DNA of 64,000 nucleotides from assembly GCF_044647545.1 (NCBI RefSeq), contig NZ_CP172818.1, one strand, 5' to 3'. The notes beneath the pieces were generated by a model. That model did not search any database. It saw only the letters and a list, made by a program, of their open reading frames with translations, and had not been told where the DNA came from. Both the position numbers and the translations under genes were made by a program. Source of the stretch: Escherichia coli. GTDB taxonomy: Bacteria; Pseudomonadota; Gammaproteobacteria; Enterobacterales; Enterobacteriaceae. This document shows positions 710-62,625 of this stretch, piece after piece. Position 1 is the stretch's first letter. Every line of letters begins with the position of its first letter.

Positions 710-1429
710 ATGGATTTTTTTAGTGTGCAGAATATCCTGGTACATATACCAATAGGAGCAGGCGGTTATGATCTCTCATGGATCGAAGCGGTAGGCACGA
801 TCGCCGGGTTGTTGTGTATTGGCCTTGCCAGTCTGGAGAAGATCAGCAACTACTTCTTTGGCCTGATCAACGTCACCTTGTTTGGCATTATTTTCTTTCA
901 GATTCAGCTGTATGCCAGCCTGCTATTACAGATGTTTTTCTTTGCCGCGAATATTTACGGCTGGTATGCGTGGTCGCGACAAACCAGTCAGAACGAGGCG
1001 GAGTTGAAAATTCGCTGGTTGCCATTGCCGAAGGCGCTATGCTGGTTGGCGGTTTGCGTTGTTTCGATTGGTCTGATGACGGTATTTATCAATCCGGTGT
1101 TTGCATTTTTGACCCGCGTGGCAGTCATCATCATGCAAGCATTAGGATTACAGGTTGCGATGCCTGAACTGCAACCGGACGCTTTCCCGTTCTGGGATTC
1201 CTGCATGATGGTGTTATCTATCGTGGCAATGATTCTGATGACGCGTAAATATGTGGAAAACTGGCTGTTGTGGGTGATTATTAACGTGATTAGCGTCGTT
1301 ATTTTTGCACTTCAGGGCGTTTACGCCATGTCTCTGGAGTACATCATCCTGACCTTTATTGCGCTCAACGGCAGCCGGATGTGGATCAACAGCGCACGCG
1401 AAAGAGGCTCACGCGCGCTGTCCCATTAA
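710..1429 (+). CDS. pnuC: nicotinamide riboside transporter PnuC
   Basis: 239-aa polytopic membrane ORF immediately downstream of nadA; sequence and position match PnuC. Confidence 0.93.
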
Positions 1430-2367
1430 TGGTGATGATGTGAATGGCCAGACACCCCTTCATTCAGGTGGCAGTCTGGCCCATGACAAGGTTGATATTC
1501 CATCTGAATAGTGGCGTGCTCAATCTGATAGTGATCCATCAGGTAGTGTTGGATCTGATCTAACAAGGCATCGTGATCGTGTGGCGGGATCACCTGCACA
1601 TGCAGCGTCATCACCGGCTTCTCGCCTACCATCCATACATGTACATGGTGCACATTGCGGACTTCCGGGATTTCCCGGCACATACGACGCTTCAGTTCGG
1701 CGATATCCAGCGATACCGGTGCACCTTCAAGTAATTCATTCACGCTATCTTTCAACAGTCGCCACGCGCTACGCAGAACCAGAAGCGACACCAGTATTGA
1801 GAGAATGGGGTCAGCAGGTGTCCAGCCGGTCCAGATAATAATCAACGCGGCAATAATAGCCCCAACCGAACCCAGCAGGTCCCCGAGCACATGCAGTGCC
1901 GCTGCTCGCACGTTGAGGTTTTTCTCTTCGCTGCCGTGATGAAGTAACCAGAAAGAAAGTATATTTGCCAGCAGCCCAGCCACGGCAATTGCCATCATCA
2001 TGCCGCCCTCGACCGGACGCGGAGTGCGGAAGCGTTCTATCGCCTCCCAGACAATCAAAATAGTAATCACCACCAGGGCGATGGCATTCACAAACGCCGC
2101 GAGCGTGGTCAATCTTAGCCAACCGAAAGTGTGGCGAATGGTGGGAGGACGACGGGAAAATTGCACTGCGAGTAGGGCGAAAAGCAGGGCGGCAGTATCG
2201 GTCAACATATGACCCGCATCGGCCAGCAATGCCAGAGAACCGGAAAGAAAACCACCAATGACTTCTACGAGCATAAACCCGGCAGTCACGCCGAAAGCAT
2301 ACAACAAGCGACGAGCATTATTATCTTCTGGCAGGTGTGAGGAAGTGTGTGAGTGTGAGTGCGCCAT
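1426..2367 (-). CDS. zitB: Zn(II)/H+ antiporter, cation diffusion facilitator family
   Basis: 313-aa ORF with His-rich N-terminus ([11 protein letters not shown]) and C-terminus (SGHSHHHH) and six TM segments; 3' end overlaps pnuC stop by 4 nt. Confidence 0.93.
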
Positions 2368-13415: not shown

Positions 13416-14104
13416 TGATACTGACCGATCCAGAATGGCAGGCAGTTTTATTAAGCCTGAAAGTTTCTTCCCTGGCTGTGCTGTTTAGCCTGCCGTTTGG
13501 GATCTTTTTTGCCTGGTTACTGGTACGTTGCACGTTTCCGGGCAAAGCTCTGCTCGACAGCGTACTGCATCTACCGCTGGTGTTACCGCCCGTGGTCGTC
13601 GGTTACTTATTATTAGTTTCGATGGGACGGCGCGGATTTATCGGTGAACGTCTGTATGACTGGTTTGGTCTTTCTTTCGCGTTTAGCTGGCGTGGTGCGG
13701 TTCTCGCTGCCGCTGTCATGTCTTTTCCGCTGATGGTGCGGGCGATTCGTCTGGCGCTGGAAGGTGTTGATATCAAACTGGAGCAGGCCGCAAGAACGTT
13801 GGGTGCCGGGCGCTGGCGTGTCTTCTTCACTATTACCTTACCGCTGACGTTGCCGGGAATTATTGTTGGTACGGTACTGGCATTCGCTCGTTCGCTCGGT
13901 GAATTTGGCGCAACCATCACCTTTGTGTCGAACATTCCTGGTGAAACGCGAACCATTCCTTCTGCTATGTATACCCTGATCCAGACCCCAGGCGGGGAAA
14001 GTGGCGCGGCGAGACTGTGTATTATTTCTATTGCGCTGGCGATGATCTCCCTGTTGATTTCAGAATGGCTGGCCAGAATCAGCCGTGAACGGGCGGGGCG
14101 CTAA
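13415..14104 (+). CDS. modB: molybdate ABC transporter permease
   Basis: 229-aa membrane ORF with ABC permease EAA-type loop; start overlaps modA stop. Confidence 0.96.
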
Positions 14105-14106
14105 TC

Positions 14107-15165
14107 ATGCTGGAACTGAATTTTTCCCAGACGTTGGGCAACCATTGCCTGACCATTAATGAAACGCTGCCCGCCAATGGCATCACCGCTATTTTTGGTG
14201 TCTCTGGTGCTGGAAAAACCTCGCTGATTAACGCCATCAGTGGGCTGACGCGCCCGCAAAAAGGGCGGATTGTCCTCAATGGTCGGGTACTAAATGATGC
14301 CGAAAAAGGTATCTGCCTGACGCCAGAAAAGCGTCGCGTTGGCTATGTGTTTCAGGATGCACGGCTGTTTCCGCATTATAAAGTGCGTGGCAATTTGCGC
14401 TACGGCATGGCAAAAAGCATGGTCAATCAGTTCGATAAGCTGGTGGCGCTTTTAGGCATTGAACCGTTGCTTGATCGTTTACCAGGCGGCCTGTCCGGAG
14501 GCGAAAAACAGCGCGTGGCGATTGGTCGGGCTTTGCTGACAGCACCGGAATTGCTGTTGCTGGATGAACCGCTGGCGTCACTGGATATTCCGCGTAAACG
14601 CGAACTGTTGCCTTATCTGCAACGTCTGACGCGGGAAATCAACATTCCGATGTTGTATGTCAGCCATTCGCTGGATGAGATCCTCCATCTGGCAGACAGA
14701 GTGATGGTACTGGAAAACGGTCAGGTGAAAGCCTTTGGCGCGCTGGAAGAAGTGTGGGGCAGTAGCGTGATGAATCCGTGGCTGCCGAAAGAGCAACAAA
14801 GTAGCATTCTGAAAGTGACGGTGCTTGAGCATCATCCGCATTACGCGATGACCGCGCTGGCGCTGGGCGATCAGCATTTGTGGGTCAATAAGCTGGACGA
14901 ACCGCTGCAAGCTGCGCTACGTATCCGCATTCAGGCTTCCGATGTTTCTCTGGTTTTACAACCGCCGCAGCAAACCAGCATTCGTAACGTATTGCGGGCA
15001 AAAGTTGTTAATAGTTATGACGACAACGGCCAGGTGGAAGTGGAGCTGGAAGTCGGCGGTAAAACGCTGTGGGCGCGTATCAGCCCGTGGGCCAGGGATG
15101 AACTGGCGATCAAACCAGGCCTGTGGCTGTACGCGCAAATTAAAAGTGTGTCGATAACCGCCTGA
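14107..15165 (+). CDS. modC: molybdate ABC transporter ATPase
   Basis: 352-aa ORF with Walker [10 protein letters not shown], signature [15 protein letters not shown] and C-terminal Mop domain. Confidence 0.96.
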
Positions 15166-15984
15166 TTAAATCAGGTGGCTATAAATGAACTGGGCAATGC
15201 TGTCGGTGGTGTTATCACCAATCACAATGTTGGCGCGCGCTTTTACCGCGTCATCGGCGTTGCCCATCGCCACGCCTGTACCAGCGGCTTCCAGCATACT
15301 GATATCATTAAAGTTATCGCCGAATGCCACGACGTTTTCCATCGACCAACCTTGTGCCTCAACCCATTTCGTCAAACGTTTACCTTTGCTGTTGCCGCCG
15401 CGTGCAATATCAACCTGATCGTGCCAGGACCATTCACACTCCAGTCCCAGTTCATGTTCGACATGCTTACCAAAATGCTGCAATTGCGGCAGGTCATCGT
15501 GCGTCAGGGCGAACTTCCATACGGCGTTAACTTGTTGCGCCGTTTCAGCCAGAGAAGCGACTTGTGTGAAAGTCGGACGCTGTTCCGGCGGCAGGGTTTG
15601 CGCCCAGTTAGACGTGCGAATGACATGCCCGGTCGGGTGCTCATAGACCATTGCATCATCGACATACATCAGACCGTGAATGTGGTGTTCATTCAGCATC
15701 TCAATGAGTTGCAGGGCTTTATTAACGGGCATTGGGTCCGCTTCCAGCACTGTTTTTGCATGATAATCATACAAATAGGTGCCATTACAGCAAATAGCAG
15801 GTGTATCCAGCGCCAGCGCCTGATAAAAAGGATGAATAGCGACGTGATGGCGACCTGTGACGATGATTAATCGATAGCCTGCTTCGCGAGCACGGGCCAG
15901 GGCTTCTATCGATGATGGAAGCAGGGTCTTTTTCGGGGTCAATAAGGTGCCGTCTAAGTCGAGAGCAATCACGCGTGTGGTCAT
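15166..15984 (-). CDS. ybhA: HAD-family sugar-phosphate/pyridoxal phosphate phosphatase
   Basis: Start chosen at MTTRVIALDLDGTLL (HAD motif I DxDGT); stop abuts the modC stop with no intergenic gap. Confidence 0.9.
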   Translation of the reverse strand: MTTRVIALDLDGTLLTPKKTLLPSSIEALARAREAGYRLIIVTGRHHVAIHPFYQALALDTPAICCNGTYLYDYHAKTVLEADPMPVNKALQLIEMLNEHHIHGLMYVDDAMVYEHPTGHVIRTSNWAQTLPPEQRPTFTQVASLAETAQQVNAVWKFALTHDDLPQLQHFGKHVEHELGLECEWSWHDQVDIARGGNSKGKRLTKWVEAQGWSMENVVAFGDNFNDISMLEAAGTGVAMGNADDAVKARANIVIGDNTTDSIAQFIYSHLI

Positions 15985-16102
15985 GGCGTATTCCAGATTA
16001 AGGTTAAGAATTTTCGTCTGCGCGAATGGTACACCGATACCACTATCGGACAAAATTCTGCGTTTTAATTCAGCATTCACCGCCAAAAGCGACTAATTTT
16101 AG

Positions 16103-17134
<1,032 letters not shown>

Positions 17135-17174: not shown

Positions 17175-18128
17175 TTAACCTATCTCCTGTAACGCATGTC
17201 TCTGGCGTTCGACGATATTGGTCCACAAATTGTCTTTATCGTCAGTCCACAAATTAATCAGCAAGGCAAAAAAGCGTTCAGCTGCCGGAGAAAGCACGGC
17301 ATCTTTGCGGCGAATAATCCCCAATGTCCGACGTATAACGGGTTCCACCAGTGGGATACCAATAATCGAAGAATAGGGCGCATGGGGCATTGCCAGACCA
17401 GGAAGCGCCGAAATCCCCAGTCCTGCCTCCACCAGTCCTAATGACGTCGAAAGATGACGCACTTCGTAAAACCAGTCCAGCTTCCAGGGCTTGTCGGCTA
17501 GCTGTTGTTCTATCAACAGTCGGTTGCCGCTGGAGGAGCGTACGCCAATCATTTTGTAACCCACTAACTCCTGCCATTCTACAAGCTGCTTTTTGGCCAA
17601 TGGATGGTCACGCCGACAGGCCAGCACGAACGGCTCGTTGACCAGTGGGGTAAAATCGATGGATGAATTTGTGACGTTGTTCATGTTTATGCCAAAGTCT
17701 GATTCGTTACACAGCACCGATTCCATGCAATTATTCGTGCCTTGTTCCAGAATCCGCACTTTAATATTGGGATACAGCTCATTAAATTTACCGATTGCCA
17801 GCGGTAAAAAATAAAATACTGCGGTCGGAATACACGCTAATGTCACCATACCACGATGATAAGCATTCATATCACGAATATTAAAAAGCGTTTCATCGAA
17901 TTTCTTTATTAATTCCCGCGCCTCCGGGAGCAATCTTTTTCCTGCTTTTGTTAACGTAACCTTGCGAGTTGTACGCTCAAATAGTTGGATATGTAAATCT
18001 TCCTCCATCTTTTTTATTCTTCGCGTTAATGCAGGTTGCGTAATATTGAGTAATTTAGCGGCATTGTTAAATGAACTGGACTCTGCCAGTATGACAAATG
18101 CCTTCATACTTGATAATTCATGCTTCAT
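17175..18128 (-). CDS. ybhD: LysR-type transcriptional regulator
   Basis: Start chosen at MKHELSSMKAFVILAESSSFNNAAKLLNITQPALTRRIKKME (LTTR HTH); divergent from ybhH. Confidence 0.88.
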   Translation of the reverse strand: MKHELSSMKAFVILAESSSFNNAAKLLNITQPALTRRIKKMEEDLHIQLFERTTRKVTLTKAGKRLLPEARELIKKFDETLFNIRDMNAYHRGMVTLACIPTAVFYFLPLAIGKFNELYPNIKVRILEQGTNNCMESVLCNESDFGINMNNVTNSSIDFTPLVNEPFVLACRRDHPLAKKQLVEWQELVGYKMIGVRSSSGNRLLIEQQLADKPWKLDWFYEVRHLSTSLGLVEAGLGISALPGLAMPHAPYSSIIGIPLVEPVIRRTLGIIRRKDAVLSPAAERFFALLINLWTDDKDNLWTNIVERQRHALQEIG

Positions 18129-34134: not shown

Positions 34135-34277
34135 CTAGTATCGGCTTAACCACTAAACACTCTAGCCTCTGCACCTGGGTCAACTGATACGGTGCTTTGG
34201 CCGTGACAATGCTCGTAAAGATTGCCACCAGGGCGAAGGAAGAAATGACTTCGCCTCCCGTATCTGGAAAGGTGTAC
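34135..34277 (+). promoter_or_regulatory. moaA leader RNA: molybdenum-cofactor (Moco) riboswitch region
   Basis: Structured leader directly upstream of moaA containing CGCCUCCC and GGAAAGG near the RBS; assigned from knowledge of the E. coli moaA leader; boundaries approximate. Confidence 0.6.
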
Positions 34278-35267
34278 ATGGCTTCACAACTGACTGATGC
34301 ATTTGCGCGTAAGTTTTACTACTTGCGCCTGTCGATTACCGATGTGTGTAACTTTCGTTGCACCTACTGCCTGCCGGATGGCTACAAACCGAGCGGCGTC
34401 ACCAATAAAGGCTTTCTTACCGTCGATGAAATTCGCCGGGTTACGCGCGCCTTCGCCAGTCTTGGCACCGAAAAAGTCCGTCTGACGGGCGGTGAGCCAT
34501 CTTTACGCCGCGACTTTACCGATATCATCGCCGCTGTGCGAGAAAACGACGCTATCCGCCAGATTGCGGTCACCACCAATGGTTACCGTCTGGAACGCGA
34601 TGTGGCGAACTGGCGCGATGCTGGACTTACTGGCATCAACGTCAGCGTTGATAGCCTTGACGCTCGCCAGTTTCATGCCATTACCGGGCAGGATAAATTC
34701 AACCAGGTCATGGCAGGGATCGATGCTGCATTTGAGGCCGGTTTTGAGAAGGTCAAAGTCAATACCGTGCTGATGCGTGATGTTAATCATCATCAGCTCG
34801 ACACCTTTCTGAACTGGATCCAGCATCGCCCTATCCAGCTGCGTTTCATCGAATTGATGGAAACGGGCGAGGGCAGCGAGCTCTTCCGTAAGCATCACAT
34901 CTCTGGTCAGGTTCTGCGGGACGAGCTACTGCGTCGCGGCTGGATCCACCAATTACGTCAACGCAGCGACGGTCCCGCGCAAGTCTTTTGTCATCCGGAT
35001 TACGCCGGAGAGATTGGCCTTATCATGCCGTATGAAAAAGACTTCTGCGCCACTTGCAACCGCCTGCGCGTTTCCTCCATTGGTAAACTCCATCTCTGCC
35101 TGTTTGGTGAAGGCGGCGTTAACCTGCGCGATCTGCTGGAAGACGATACCCAGCAACAGGCGCTGGAAGCGCGTATTTCAGCGGCGCTGCGGGAGAAAAA
35201 ACAGACCCATTTCCTGCATCAAAACAACACCGGTATTACGCAAAACTTATCGTACATTGGTGGCTAA
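34278..35267 (+). CDS. moaA: GTP 3',8-cyclase (radical SAM)
   Basis: Start chosen at [31 protein letters not shown] (radical-SAM cysteines); the upstream in-frame extension is the leader RNA. Confidence 0.95.
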
Positions 35268-41865: not shown

Positions 41866-42276
41866 ATGAAGTGGCAACAACGTGTTCGTGTCGCAACGGG
41901 TCTAAGTTGCTGGCAGATTATGTTGCATTTACTGGTAGTGGCGCTGCTGGTGGTGGGCTGGATGAGTAAGACTCTGGTTCACGTCGGCGTGGGATTATGC
42001 GCACTGTATTGTGTCACGGTAGTGATGATGCTGGTGTTTCAGCGCCACCCCGAGCAACGCTGGCGTGAGGTGGCAGACGTGCTGGAAGAGCTGACCACGA
42101 CCTGGTATTTTGGTGCAGCGCTGATTGTGCTGTGGCTGTTGTCCCGCGTACTGGAAAACAACTTTTTGCTGGCAATTGCAGGGCTGGCAATCCTTGCTGG
42201 CCCGGCGGTAGTGTCTTTGCTGGCGAAAGATAAGAAGTTACATCACCTTACGTCTAAACATCGCGTACGCCGCTGA
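41866..42276 (+). CDS. ybhQ: small inner membrane protein
   Basis: 136-aa ORF with four hydrophobic segments and RBS; 3' end overlaps ybhR 3' end by 39 nt. Confidence 0.85.
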
Positions 42277-43344
42277 CCCTGTCGTGGCCGTTATCACCAG
42301 TAGCGGCCACAAACTATTCCACACAATATCCAGACTCGCATCCTTCAAATAAATCTGCTTGGTAATGTCCGTAAAGTGGCGAATAGGGTTAATCCACGTC
42401 AGATTTTGCAGCCACACTGGCATGTTTTCCACCGGCGAAACGTAACCGGAAAGGAGAATGGCGGGCATCATAAAGACAAACACGCCGATAAACGCCTGCT
42501 GTTGTGTCGAGCAGAGTGATGAAATCAACAGACCGAAGCCTACCAGCGATAAACCGTAAATCACCATCGTAAAGTAGAACAGCGCCAGCGATCCGGCGAA
42601 GGGGATTTGATACGCCCAGATACCAATCGCCAGCACAATGGTGGCCTGGAAGGTGGCGACAATTAATGCCGGTACGGCCTTGCCGATGAATATCTGCCAG
42701 GTGGTGAGCGGCGAAACCAGTAACTGATCGAGCGTACCTTGTTCACGTTCGCGGGCGACGGAAAGTGAAGTGACGATCATTACGCCGATAGTGGTGATCA
42801 TGGCGATCAGCGACGGCACCACAAACCATTTGTAGTCGAGATTCGGGTTATACCAGTTGCGTACCACCAGCTCGCTGTTGTTGGGTTTCGGTTTTCCTTC
42901 CAGCAGCTCCTGCTGATAATTTTTGACGATCTGTTGCAGGTAGTTGGCGGCAATTTGCGCACTGTTGGAGTTACGCCCGTCTAGGATCAACTGTAACGGC
43001 GCGGTCTGGAAGGTATCCAGTTTGCGCGAGAAGTCAGCCGGGAAACGCACCAGGAGTAACGCCTTTTGTGTGTCGATGGTCGGGCGGATCTCCTGCGGGC
43101 TTTTCAGCAGCAGCACATGGGTAAAGGCGCTGGCGCGGGCAAAACGTTGGGTCAGCTCCACCGAATGCTCGCCGTTATCTTCATCGTAGATGGCGATGGT
43201 GGCGTTAGTCACTTCCAGCGTGGCGGCGAACGGGAACAGGATCACCTGAATCAGCACGGGTAAAATAAGAATCGCACGGGTTTGCGGTTCGCGCAGCAGC
43301 GACTGCAACTCTTTGCGGATTAACGTCCATAAGCGATGAAACAT
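42238..43344 (-). CDS. ybhR: ABC-2 type transporter permease
   Basis: 368-aa membrane ORF, last gene of cecR-ybhGFSR; paralog of YbhS. Confidence 0.94.
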
Positions 43345-49475: not shown

Positions 49476-49622
<147 letters not shown>

Positions 49623-59476: not shown

Positions 59477-60403
59477 ATGTCCGCCCAGAAACCGGGGTTG
59501 CATCCGCGCAACCGTCATCACAGCCGCTACGATCTCGCCACGCTTTGTCAGGTCAATCCTGAACTCAGGCAATTCCTCACGCTTACACCCGCCGGGGAGC
59601 AAAGCGTAGACTTTGCCAATCCGCTGGCGGTGAAGGCGCTCAATAAGGCGTTGCTGGCCCATTTTTACGCCGTAGCGAACTGGGATATCCCCGACGGTTT
59701 TCTCTGCCCACCAGTACCGGGCCGGGCGGATTATATTCATCACCTTGCCGATTTACTGGCAGAAGCAACAGGATCAATTCCAGCTAATGCCAGCATTCTG
59801 GATATCGGCGTTGGTGCGAACTGTATTTATCCGCTGATTGGCGTACATGAATATGGCTGGCGTTTTACTGGTAGTGAAACCAGCAGCCAGGCGTTAAGCA
59901 GTGCGCAGGCGATCATCAGTGCTAATCCGGGGCTTAACCGCGCCATTCGTCTGCGTCGGCAAAAAGAGAGTGGGGCGATTTTTAACGGCATCATCCATAA
60001 AAACGAGCAATACGACGCGACCTTGTGTAACCCGCCATTCCACGATTCCGCCGCTGCGGCACGGGCAGGTAGTGAACGTAAACGCCGTAACCTGGGGCTA
60101 AACAAAGACGATGCACTGAATTTTGGTGGTCAGCAACAGGAGTTGTGGTGTGAAGGCGGTGAAGTCGCTTTTATTAAAAAGATGATTGAAGAGAGCAAAG
60201 GCTTCGCGAAGCAGGTGATGTGGTTTACCTCGCTGGTATCTCGTGGTGAAAACTTACCGCCGTTGTATCGTGCCCTGACGGACGTGGGCGCGGTGAAGGT
60301 GGTTAAAAAAGAGATGGCCCAGGGGCAAAAGCAGAGTCGCTTTATTGCCTGGACCTTTATGAACGACGAGCAGCGCCGCCGTTTTGTCAATCGCCAGCGT
60401 TAA
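59477..60403 (+). CDS. rlmF: 23S rRNA m6A1618 methyltransferase
   Basis: Start chosen at [15 protein letters not shown] with AAGGAG RBS (308 aa); SAM-MTase motifs [12 protein letters not shown] and NPPF. Confidence 0.92.
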
Positions 60404-62625
60404 AGCGTTGGTTCCCCCGGCGGCAACGGTTCAGCCGGGGTCGCGCCCGGAGCAGGCAGCACCTGATAAGTCTGCACTGGCGCGCGAACGCCCGCCAGGT
60501 CGAAATGTTTTTTCACCTGGCTGTCGAGGGCAAAGCGGACCGTCCACTGTTTGAGTGGCAGCGTGGTGAACGAAACACGCAGTGTAAACGCGGTATTGCT
60601 TAAGCCGACAATCCCGGCAAAATTCGGTTCACCAATAATCAGCCCGCGAATTTCTTCGTTTTCCATCAATTCCGCTACCGCATCTTTCAGTGCCTGATTG
60701 GCTTTATCAGCATCTTCATGGCGATCAACATCGTAATTTGCCACCACCGAACCAATGCCGCGGACGAAGTTAGCAAAGGTAGTTATAGAAGACCACGGAA
60801 TGATGTGATACGCCCCGGTATCCTGACGCACGCCCACGGAGCGAATCGACATCCGTTCCACAGTGCCGGTCAACGGCCCGATAGTCACCAAATCTCCAGT
60901 GTTCATACCGTTTTCAAACTGAATAAATACCCCGGTGATAATATCTTTCACCAGCGTTTGCGAACCAAACGAGATAGCCAGACCTAATGCCCCGGCACCT
61001 GCCAGCAATGGCGCGATATTGACGCCGATTTCCGACAACACAATCATGATGGTGATGGTACTGATAATCACCGCCAGCGCGTTACGAAACAGCGTAAGCA
61101 GGGTACGCGTGCGGGCGCTGGGTAGCGGGCGGCCATGAATATCCGAAGCCAGCCGGTTTTCGATCAAACTGGCGAGCACCGTCCAGCCAACCGCCGAGAA
61201 GAAAAGAATGAGTGCGATACGGATCAGGATATCTACGGTTTTCTGCCCCGCACCGTTTTGCAGCCAGTTCCAGAAATCGAACAATCCCCATGCGCTCAAC
61301 AGCAGCATTACCGCCACGCAGACGGTCAGAATACGCGCCGTTTTCAATGCCGCCGAAAGCCAGCCGTTCAGCCGTTTTTGCAGCTCCGGATAATTTCGCT
61401 GAGTATGTGGCGAGAGGGTGATGGTTTTCGCCAGCCAGCGGGAAAACATACCGGAAACAAATGCTGCGATACCAATAATCGCCAGGCTACGCACCGTTGC
61501 ACCCATCATAAATTTCAGGCTGTTGCCCGGATCGAACAACGAAAAGAAAAACAGCACGATAAAATAGGCGCTTGCCAGCCAGTGCCACACCAGCGCAAAG
61601 GCGCGGATAAACAGGCTGAAAAAGGCCAGCGAATGCTCCGCGAAGTTGAGCAAATGCTGGGTAATCTCTTTTTTATTACGAAAGATCAGGTACAGCGCCC
61701 AGACCGTCATGCACAGCATAATGATGACGTTCGCCAGCGCACCTATCTGTACATTCACCTGATTAGAGATAATCGGCACAGCCACAATCAGACCATAGCC
61801 AATCAGGCTGCTTAACCAGCTCAGGCGACGACTCCAGTAACGGGCGGTCTCGTCATGAATCGTGAACGGGCGCAGTTCAGCCACGTTTGGGCAAAAAATC
61901 AGGCGTAGTACGGCTTTGAAAAATTCAATCAGGGCAAAGGCGTTGAGAAACAAACTTTGTTGGAAAGCGATGGTGCGACTGCCCGCATTCAGGTTGTCGC
62001 TTAAAACCTGACCGACAAATAATGTCAGTGCCAGTAACAGCAGGTCGATAATAAACGCCCCGATAATCATCGCCGGAAGCTGCAACCAGTTACTGCGCTC
62101 ACGATTTTTTTGCCGCGCCCACTGGCCCATTTTGCGATACAGCGGAAGTGCGCACAGGCGAATCAGCCAGTAAAAACCAAACACTAATACCGCTAACATT
62201 GAAAAATGGGTCAACGCATTGCTGAAGGTTTGTGGATTAAACGGCTTATGCGGGGAGCCGGTGATATTGCGATAAAGTTGCCCGAAGCGGGCGGAAAGGG
62301 CTTCACCATAATGGCGGCTGACTTCGGTGACCTTTTGCAGCACGGTTTGCTCTTCAACCAGCGTCGGCGGCACGATCTTCGGTACGGGTTCTGCCGGGGG
62401 CGTCGCGGCGACGGTGCGCAACTGGTCGATCAACTCTTTACGCGAGGTGTCATTATCCAGCACATCCGCCAGTGCGCCATAGGCCGCTTTTTTTTGTTCG
62501 ATATCCGGTTCCGGGGCCGGTTCAGTCGTTGAGTCCGTTGTCGTTGTGGTTGTAACGCCGGGTATGGATACCGCGTGGGCAGGTGCGCCCAGCAGGCAGA
62601 AGAGGATGAACAGGATCCACCGCAT
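60400..62625 (-). CDS. ybiO: MscS-family mechanosensitive channel with large N-terminal extension
   Basis: Start chosen at [18 protein letters not shown] (signal-like, GGAG RBS); multiple TM segments and MscS-like C-terminal domain; 3' end overlaps rlmF stop by 4 nt. Confidence 0.92.

Follow-up and report, generated by a model that had tools for sequence, protein, structure and literature searches.

The convergent gene pairs that meet without any intergenic spacer in the window analysed here, a 64,000-nucleotide stretch of Escherichia coli DNA, are likely to be of a kind that is ordinary for the E. coli chromosome, namely convergent gene ends that were compacted long ago. With no spacer between the partners, each transcript would pass its own stop codon, run into the partner gene in antisense and gain its 3' end there, and the determinant of that 3' end would differ from junction to junction. 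The overlapping RNAs produced in this way could pair with one another and could be cut by RNase III, and compaction most likely produced their overlap as a tolerated by-product, not as a switch by design.

The geometry of the junctions was checked by comparing the list of open reading frames with the raw sequence and with the RefSeq annotation of both K-12 and a strain nearly identical to this one, and all of these sources agree. The modC gene (14107..15165, + strand) ends with a TGA at 15163-15165 that, as the first-pass annotation of this DNA had described, directly abuts the TTA at 15166-15168, which is the TAA stop of ybhA (15166..15984, - strand), leaving a spacer of 0. Such a junction at 0 nt is an abutment and strictly no overlap. 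The two 4-nt overlaps that had been described together with it are likewise found in all sources: pnuC (710..1429, + strand), the last gene of nadA-pnuC, and zitB (1426..2367, - strand) have in common the TTAA at 1426-1429 (cat TAA / TTA atg), in which the zitB stop reads as TTA on the + strand at 1426-1428 and the pnuC stop occupies 1427-1429, and rlmF (59477..60403, + strand) and ybiO (60400..62625, - strand) have in common the TTAA at 60400-60403. A fourth spacer-less pair, which was absent from that earlier list, consists of ybhQ (41866..42276, + strand) and ybhR (42238..43344, - strand), which overlap by 39 nt (42238-42276). The pnuC/zitB and rlmF/ybiO overlaps, both TTAA, fit the YTAR class of tetramers that contain both stops (CTAA, TTAA, CTAG and TTAG), and relatives carry TTAA, CTAA, TTAG or CTAG at the site where E. 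coli has TTAA. The overlaps are formed by two real coding sequences on opposite strands, and the conservation across genera of the proteins, of their tails and of the stop positions rules out an annotation artefact as the source of those positions.

Spacer-less arrangement of convergent genes is not special, being the state of about one quarter of E. coli convergent pairs. Spacers of 0 or less occur in 4 of the 11 convergent pairs of the window as compared to 8 of the 32 pairs in a control made up of four 50-kb stretches of K-12 annotation (200 kb; Fisher p=0.47), with median convergent spacers of 37 and 40 nt, respectively, and half of the spacer-less control pairs (4 of 8) are 4-nt overlaps. 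The 58 convergent overlaps of E. coli and their YTAR stop-stop tetramers were described in 2007 (PMC2174442); a literature count of 58 overlaps in ~704 pairs gave P ~0.01-0.09 for a local enrichment of tight packing, a reading that we dropped because the direct control from current annotation is itself 25% spacer-less and does not differ from the window.

The packing also appears to be old, as judged by its recurrence in sequences from across the Enterobacteriaceae. The 4-nt overlap of pnuC and zitB is retained in ~17 Enterobacteriaceae loci and the spacer of 0 between modC and ybhA in 18, as well as in 3 loci of Pantoea, with an alignment of 240 columns that is free of gaps, and the -39 layout of ybhQ and ybhR is identical in Citrobacter, Salmonella, Leclercia and Enterobacter. 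The rlmF/ybiO spacer of -4 is shared by Salmonella, C. koseri, Pseudocitrobacter and Trabulsiella, while K. quasipneumoniae has 0 and E. cancerogenus +47. In Yersinia, Serratia, Hafnia, Rahnella and Budvicia, spacers of 33-734 nt are found, with terminator-like palindromes, which in Yersinia, Serratia and Hafnia are plainly of the bidirectional type.

Where there is no intergenic room, transcripts must end within the partner gene and their 3' UTRs therefore overlap. Such overlap had been proposed from the sequence in the first-pass annotation and agrees with published RNA data: each of the four pairs is catalogued as one of the convergent excludons of MG1655 by ExcludonFinder (NAR 2025, PMC12288877), entry into this excludome denoting detection in 50% or more of 58 RNA-seq sets, and antisense RNA is raised over zitB, ybhA and ybhR (antisense/sense RPM of 12.8/24.0, 18.7/19.4 and 24.0/14.2, respectively, in total RNA-seq; PMC7373196 Table S1c) as compared to ~1-5 antisense RPM for neighbouring listed genes, with ybhS back at 1.2 (same table). 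Published data on p19-captured dsRNA give 83-491 RPM in ybhA and up to ~350 RPM in ybhQ and ybhR, and at the level of whole genes ybhA, ybhQ and ybhR have high dsRNA signals, zitB and pnuC moderate ones, and modC and rlmF low ones. The accompanying proposal that these junctions have no room for an intrinsic terminator holds for intergenic space, of which there is none, and does not hold for the partner coding sequences, in which hairpins are embedded (H1, H2 and the hairpin at 15902-15934, all described below). The question of terminator location in such pairs had been raised in 2007, when Rho-independent terminators were reported within the partner coding sequence for ~20% of 116 E. coli convergent-overlap genes (PMC2174442), and predicted terminators lie within the neighbour's transcription unit in 146 of 165 convergent excludons (PMC12288877). 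The curated Term-seq list has no 3' end at 783xxx or 796-797xxx, and in the published data examined none of H1, H2 and the ybhQ hairpin coincides with a mapped 3' end. The bicyclomycin (Rho) table of PMC7815308 has no entry for pnuC, zitB, modC, ybhA, rlmF or ybiO, the six genes that were looked up there; as the genes are weakly expressed, this amounts to absence of data and is uninformative.

The pnuC/zitB junction has two reciprocal hairpins, each just past one of the stops and within C-terminal codons of the partner, that are candidates for its 3'-end elements. H1 (1389..1421, - strand) belongs to zitB-sense RNA, starts 3 nt past the zitB stop and occupies C-terminal codons of pnuC (SAR..SRAL), and H2 (1446..1481, + strand) belongs to pnuC-sense RNA, lies 16 nt past the pnuC stop and occupies C-terminal codons of zitB (GPDC..SGH). 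Their folding energies of -24.9 and -20.2 kcal/mol place H1 in the top 0.02% of 41-nt segments of the whole window and H2 in the top 0.3%. Among the sequences aligned, 82.9% of cells are paired for H1 (23 sequences, with two-sided changes at 4 pairs) and 84.8% for H2 (17 sequences, with two-sided changes at 6 pairs). Covariation is 0.168 for H1 versus 0.113 when shuffled (0/500) and at most 0.104 in the slid control, and 0.316 for H2 versus 0.169 (0/500) and at most 0.139, although the shuffle controls overstate significance because the aligned sequences are related, and the signal of H1 is modest. RNAalifold applied to wide alignments missed both hairpins, owing to variable loops and to indels in distant taxa, and was replaced by the scoring of named structures on trimmed alignments. 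Some of the compensatory changes in H1 and H2 are synonymous (e.g., CCA/TCT to CCG/TCC and GCG/CGC to GCC/CGG), and the wobble pairs of both hairpins are biased towards the RNA of whichever gene ends just before the hairpin, with G.U exceeding A.C by 22 to 10 on the zitB-sense strand of H1 and by 19 to 2 on the pnuC-sense strand of H2. H1 is a GC-rich stem-loop that is followed in Pantoea, Erwinia and Cedecea by UUUUAAUCC or UUUUGAUCC and in E. coli by UGUUGAUCC, which falls below the U-tract rule of our terminator scan (5 T in 8). H2 is a stable stem with no U tract after it, and the C/G ratios downstream of it (0.90 and 0.64) are not rut-like. We infer that H1 is a terminator-like 3' element for zitB and that H2 is a U-tract-less 3'-end stem-loop for the nadA-pnuC mRNA, each with a putative role in termination or protection.

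At the ybhQ/ybhR junction, the hairpin GTGGCCGTTAT cacca GTAGCGGCCAC (42284..42310, + strand) lies 8 nt past the ybhQ stop, within ybhR codons, and is more stable than dinucleotide shuffles (z = -4.7). It is retained in 5 genera, across which its 3' arm is invariant and compensatory changes are absent. The stem-loop has no U tract and is followed by a rut-like tract that is rich in C and poor in G (C/G 2.25 over the first 75 nt), a combination that would suit a Rho-dependent 3' end trimmed to a protective stem-loop. The GC-rich hairpins downstream of rlmF are explained by composition (z = 0.05) and are non-homologous between species, and we rejected them as a conserved element. Rut-like C/G ratios above 1.5 are found at 75-225 nt past the stops of modC, ybhA, ybhR and ybiO, and a search of Rfam gave no family match at any of the junctions. 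As there is no supported embedded structure near the modC/ybhA and rlmF/ybiO junctions, read-through at these two would probably be ended by the action of Rho on antisense RNA that is C-rich and untranslated, by collisions of polymerases that meet head-on, or by both.

A reading that dispenses with 3'-end signals altogether, in which compaction was purely neutral and the hairpins are by-products of protein constraints and GC-rich codons, is in our judgement unlikely. It is consistent with the compositional origin of the rlmF/ybiO hairpins, with the invariant 3' arm at ybhQ, with an inverted repeat at modC/ybhA (see below) that tracks conserved protein tails, and with the position of H1 and H2 within the range of dinucleotide shuffles of their own sequence, against which they are no outliers (z = -1.6 and -1.3, respectively). 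It does not accommodate the synonymous compensatory substitutions in H1 and H2, or covariation in excess of both controls, and protein constraints would not be expected to make G.U outnumber A.C 19:2 on the just-ended gene's strand.

The repeat in question is a 9-bp inverted repeat, CCGCCTGAT taa ATCAGGTGG (15158..15178, not assigned to a strand), centred on the stops of both modC and ybhA, with a folding energy of -14 kcal/mol on either strand (~5th percentile). As a conserved bidirectional terminator it was rejected, since its covariation of 0.114 versus 0.103 when shuffled (147/500) gives no support and since it is missing from six loci that retain the spacer of 0. These results bear on the model of Ju et al. 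2019 and Wang et al. 2022 (10.1101/2022.10.23.513370), in which a hairpin at the junction pauses both polymerases and head-on and trailing collisions release them, and which predicts sharp 3' ends flanking the hairpin on both strands. Hundreds of convergent pairs in E. coli, with terminators that lack U tracts and are Rho-independent, have been put forward as cases of this model, and the junctions described here resemble those pairs in their convergent genes, their boundary hairpins (no farther than 20 nt from the stops of pnuC, zitB and ybhQ, besides the repeat that spans the modC/ybhA stops) and the lack of a canonical U tract. Its application to the present genes is nevertheless doubtful: a single boundary hairpin of the bidirectional kind is found neither at modC/ybhA, where the repeat fails as noted, nor at pnuC/zitB, which has two separate, strand-specific hairpins in place of one common element, and collision is best suited to highly expressed genes, unlike the weakly expressed ones here.

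Farther along the modC strand, the terminator scan detected a hairpin and U-run (15902..15934, + strand) within the 5' part of ybhA, with a stem of 9 bp (15902-15922) and a U tract by the scan's rule (TCTTTTT in 15923-15934). The Term-seq 3' end of MG1655 at 798381 (+), which corresponds to window position 15934, falls at this hairpin (PMC7815308 supplementary file 1), 769 nt past the modC stop. The hairpin is Escherichia-specific and its T-run derives from PKK codons of ybhA. The RNA that ends at 15934 may have originated as read-through from modABC or as an antisense RNA of its own that would start near 15772, and a modC 3' UTR of 769 nt could not be claimed from this end. The single dsRNA duplex mapped in ybhA (15801-15825) is distant from the junction with modC, and a separate antisense RNA, not read-through from modC, may give rise to the antisense signal seen over ybhA.

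Excludons in the regulatory sense, in which the spacer-less layout has been kept by selection because transcribing one gene represses its partner, by interference between polymerases and by RNase III cutting the 3' duplex, and expression becomes mutually exclusive (e.g., modABC versus ybhA, or nadA-pnuC versus zitB), are quite improbable here. Membership of the pairs in the published excludome speaks for them, as do the lower single-cell co-expression and higher synteny of the class (PMC12288877), the nucleotide-exact conservation of the layouts over long divergence and the dsRNA reads in ybhA, ybhQ and ybhR. However, a transcript that reaches its stop at a spacer of 0 or less overlaps the partner, which makes an entry in the excludome close to automatic; the spacer-less control pairs zapC-ycbX, yccX-tusE, cho-ves and nudG-ynjH are also listed. 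Mutually exclusive expression is the defining trait of the convergent excludons of ExcludonFinder, and in the present pairs the RNA-seq signature by which they are recognized follows almost from geometry; the support for exclusive expression is the single-cell result at the level of the class, and validation of convergent excludons with p19 failed for the authors of the excludome. A functional link between the partners is not evident, and the rlmF/ybiO layout varies (-4, 0, +47 or ybiO absent) without obvious pattern. Exact conservation is also expected under neutrality, because a spacer can be regained only by insertion at a single position or by a stop change that alters the protein tail. 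It is very unlikely that exact conservation marks a selected reciprocal 3'-overlap switch, with the tails of PnuC and ZitB (and YbhR) shaped by the partner's hairpin and induction of one gene damping the other.

Compacted gene ends of the ordinary kind, the reading that we favour, are in keeping with what has been described previously. Spacer-less convergent pairs are already known, the class having been analysed in 2007 and these particular pairs catalogued in 2025 as overlapping transcripts. The pnuC/zitB and rlmF/ybiO pairs correspond to the opposite-strand TTAA arrangement with stops overlapping by 4 nt of Lillo & Krakauer 2007 (PMC2174442), from whose class nothing essential differs here, modC/ybhA being an abutment and ybhQ/ybhR overlapping over a longer stretch (39 nt). 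Both H2 and the hairpin at ybhQ, which are stable, U-less and just past a stop, resemble the protective stem-loops at Rho-dependent ends of Dar & Sorek 2018 (PMC6061677), as does the C-rich, G-poor tract that follows the ybhQ hairpin; unlike those stem-loops, the two lie inside the coding sequence of another gene, and the tail of H2 is not C-rich.

As a discovery, the significance of these junctions is small, since convergent genes that meet without a spacer are frequent in E. coli. The pnuC/zitB junction is a clean, conserved case of dual coding, in which C-terminal codons also appear to encode the 3'-end hairpin of the partner gene, and it could be used to gauge how far embedded signals constrain protein tails. 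Those who recode or delete any of the present genes should expect that the 3' end of the neighbouring gene may be disturbed, and "excludon" calls for spacer-less pairs are better regarded as something close to a geometric necessity than as evidence of regulation.

Convergent genes meet without a spacer at four junctions of the window, which spans nadA to glnP of the E. coli chromosome. The pnuC (end 1429) and zitB (end 1426) genes have a TTAA common to both stops, as do rlmF (end 60403) and ybiO (end 60400); the modC TGA (15163-15165) directly abuts the ybhA stop (15166-15168, TTA on the + strand), giving a spacer of 0, and ybhQ (end 42276) and ybhR (end 42238) overlap by 39 nt at 42238-42276. 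The last pair was absent from the first-pass annotation, whose junction coordinates for the other three are all borne out by the raw sequence and the ORF list. RefSeq annotates the same gene order and junctions both in a near-identical strain and in K-12 MG1655; positions 14000-17000 are 100% identical to several non-K-12 strains, and this region is found in 5391 of 5426 complete genomes. Relative to NZ_CP033850.1 (FDAARGOS_497), gene coordinates are off by 3-4 nt beyond ~33 kb (window about 33000-60000), and in this near-identical strain the LysR-type regulator gene ybhD, at 17175-18128 (-), is a pseudogene with an internal stop, the gene being intact in K-12.

The 11 convergent spacers of the window measure -4, 165, 0, 40, 70, 37, 35, -39, 233, 138 and -4 nt (median 37 nt), as compared to a median of 40 nt among 32 CDS-CDS convergent pairs in a control sample of the current K-12 annotation, four stretches of 50 kb each (Fisher p=0.47). 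Spacers of 0 or less occur in 8 of the 32 control pairs, four of them as 4-nt overlaps; roughly one in four convergent pairs of E. coli thus has no spacer, and the packing observed here is the genome's normal state. A mild local excess of tight packing, first suggested by literature numbers (58 convergent overlaps counted in E. coli in 2007, PMC2174442, used with a count of 704 convergent pairs), was dropped after this control. Other long convergent overlaps, seen in the control stretches, include bioP/metR (113 nt), cho/ves (41 nt), sxy/yccS (38 nt) and nudG/ynjH (35 nt). The tetramers that let two stops overlap by 4 nt (CTAA, TTAA, CTAG and TTAG) were described in the 2007 study, which also posed the question of where the terminators of such pairs are located (PMC2174442).

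The packing is old. Species-representative genomes were scanned via GalT with 10-kb flanks, which cover the pnuC/zitB and modC/ybhA junctions, and orthologues and their stops were then located. The modC/ybhA spacer is 0 in Escherichia albertii, three Citrobacter, Pseudocitrobacter, Kluyvera, Enterobacter, Superficieibacter, Siccibacter, Cedecea and three Pantoea, and 6-734 nt in Erwinia, Pantoea stewartii, Serratia, Hafnia, Rahnella, Yersinia and Budvicia; a 240-column alignment of 20 sequences around this junction contains zero gaps. The pnuC/zitB spacer measures -4 at about 17 loci; a few others have 0, -7, +1 or +2, and Yersinia has 75-76 nt. Contigs encoding RlmF homologues give an rlmF/ybiO spacer of -4 in Salmonella, C. 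koseri, Pseudocitrobacter and Trabulsiella, 0 in K. quasipneumoniae and +47 in E. cancerogenus, ybiO being missing from Kluyvera, and the ybhQ/ybhR layout is the same in Citrobacter, Salmonella, Leclercia and Enterobacter. The outgroup spacers of 33-734 nt hold long perfect palindromes between A and T runs, e.g., TCAGTCAGGCGA...TCGCCTGACTGA (pnuC-zitB, Yersinia loci L037 and L040; modC-ybhA, loci L026, L027 and L040). These look like bidirectional terminators that the Enterobacteriaceae lost, and the likely history, judged from these sequences, is loss of a spacer bearing such a terminator. Geometry, ordinariness and age we regard as established.

At the pnuC/zitB junction, the informative one among the four, each gene carries a hairpin within its codons. 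H1 (1389-1421, -) starts 3 nt past the zitB stop, in the pnuC codons SAR..SRAL, and H2 (1446-1481, +) starts 16 nt past the pnuC stop, in the zitB codons GPDC..SGH. Their folds (-24.9 and -20.2 kcal/mol) lie in the top 0.02% and 0.3%, respectively, of the window's 41-nt windows, although neither stands out from shuffled versions of itself (z = -1.6 for H1, -1.3 for H2). Both are present in every genus examined, with pairing-preserving changes that include synonymous two-sided ones (CCA/TCT to CCG/TCC in H2; GCG/CGC to GCC/CGG in H1). Counted on the named structures, H1 has 82.9% of cells paired, four two-sided pairs and a covariation of 0.168 (shuffled 0.113, 0/500; slid at most 0.104), and H2 has 84.8%, six two-sided pairs and 0.316 (shuffled 0.169, 0/500; slid at most 0.139), the shuffle control being too favourable because the aligned sequences are related. 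Wobble pairs read as G.U versus A.C number 22 versus 10 for H1 on the zitB-sense strand and 19 versus 2 for H2 on the pnuC-sense strand; this established strand bias thus fits hairpins suited to the transcript whose coding region lies just upstream and not to the mRNA that supplies their codons. The tail of H1 is UGUUGAUCC in E. coli, and either UUUUAAUCC or UUUUGAUCC in Pantoea, Erwinia and Cedecea; H1 resembles an intrinsic terminator whose U tract varies in quality. H2 lacks a U tract. Between nadA and pnuC, at 684-697, the perfect 14-nt palindrome GCGTAACGTTACGC has the look of a weak terminator on the - strand, in the path of any zitB transcript that reads through pnuC.

Past the ybhQ stop, a strong hairpin begins after 8 nt (42284-42310; z = -4.7), and the tract behind it is rich in C and poor in G (C/G 2.25). 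The hairpin is kept in five genera with an invariant 3' arm, hence with no compensatory changes among these. The modC/ybhA and rlmF/ybiO junctions have no supported structures. A 9-bp inverted repeat centred on both stops of modC/ybhA ranks only at about the 5th percentile of stability, lacks covariation (0.114 versus 0.103 shuffled, 147/500) and is gone in six taxa still at spacer 0, and an alifold scan of 120 nt to either side of the junction found nothing on either strand. GC-rich hairpins downstream of rlmF, tried as a conserved element, were rejected as non-homologous between species and accounted for by composition (z = 0.05). At 75-225 nt downstream of the modC, ybhA, ybhR and ybiO stops, C/G exceeds 1.5, as expected where Rho loads onto antisense RNA that is not translated. 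Rfam gave zero family matches at any junction. Elsewhere in the window it places a molybdenum cofactor riboswitch upstream of moaA (34146-34290, +; RF01055, 103 bits) and an ES036 (CssrF) sRNA match at 49544-49586 (-), which scores 43.3 bits (gathering score 37.6) and falls within the convergent spacer of 233 nt between rhlE and ybiA.

Overlapping 3' transcripts, as the first-pass annotation had proposed, agree with published data, which also show dsRNA at some of these genes. Wild-type sense and antisense RNA-seq values (RPM per gene; Huang et al. 2020, PMC7373196) are 40.9 and 2.0 for pnuC, 24.0 and 12.8 for zitB, 94.2 and 2.4 for modC, 19.4 and 18.7 for ybhA, 111 and 5.0 for ybhQ, 14.2 and 24.0 for ybhR (antisense exceeding sense), 16.2 and 1.2 for ybhS, 10.6 and 2.8 for rlmF, and 29.8 and 4.5 for ybiO. 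The partner downstream of the stronger-expressed gene thus carries the elevated antisense signal, which is gone by the next gene, a pattern that fits read-through ending within the partner. In the same study, p19-captured dsRNA amounts to 83-491 RPM for ybhA and up to about 350 RPM for ybhQ and ybhR, is moderate for zitB and pnuC, and is low for modC and rlmF (PMC7373196). A published RNase III-cut duplex (MG1655 v2 784002-784026; window 2323-2347) sits 20-45 nt into zitB from its start, well away from the 3' overlap, which implies that the 5' end of zitB is transcribed in antisense. Among the curated Term-seq 3' ends of Adams et al. 2021, none falls at the pnuC/zitB, modC/ybhA or rlmF/ybiO junctions, and the bicyclomycin table of that study lists none of these six genes, both uninformative given their weak expression (PMC7815308).

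Part of the ybhA signal probably has another origin. A separate antisense RNA is predicted inside the 5' half of ybhA (15744-15934, +), to which point a published sigma54 ChIP site antisense within the gene (15744-15760), the membership of ybhA among 17 genes with an antisense TSS common to E. coli and Salmonella, and an RNase III duplex at 15801-15825 (PMC7373196). A putative RNA of ~165 nt ending at 15934 would explain these data and much of the ybhA antisense signal. The Term-seq 3' end at that position (MG1655 798381, +; PMC7815308), which coincides with a hairpin and U-run found by terminator scan at 15902-15934, could instead be the terminus of modABC read-through, 769 nt beyond the modC stop; the three data sets point away from this and to the separate antisense RNA. 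The hairpin occurs only in Escherichia, its T-run deriving from the PKK codons of ybhA.

H1 would terminate zitB, and H2 and the ybhQ hairpin may protect 3' ends after termination further downstream, much like the protective stem-loops described for Rho-dependent transcripts (PMC6061677). Read-through at modC/ybhA and rlmF/ybiO would be ended by Rho and/or polymerase collisions. The finding fits two known classes, the YTAR convergent overlaps of 2007 (PMC2174442) and the convergent excludome of E. coli MG1655 (ExcludonFinder, NAR 2025, PMC12288877), which names these very pairs. The excludome paper reports 146 of 165 convergent excludons with predicted terminators inside the neighbour's transcription unit, and its set also contains the spacer-less control pairs zapC-ycbX, yccX-tusE, cho-ves and nudG-ynjH; its authors note that p19 capture failed to validate convergent excludons (PMC12288877). 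For pairs without a spacer, geometry by itself makes an excludon call nearly unavoidable. The embedded hairpins of pnuC/zitB illustrate dual coding well, and are of a kind already counted in the 2007 and 2025 papers.
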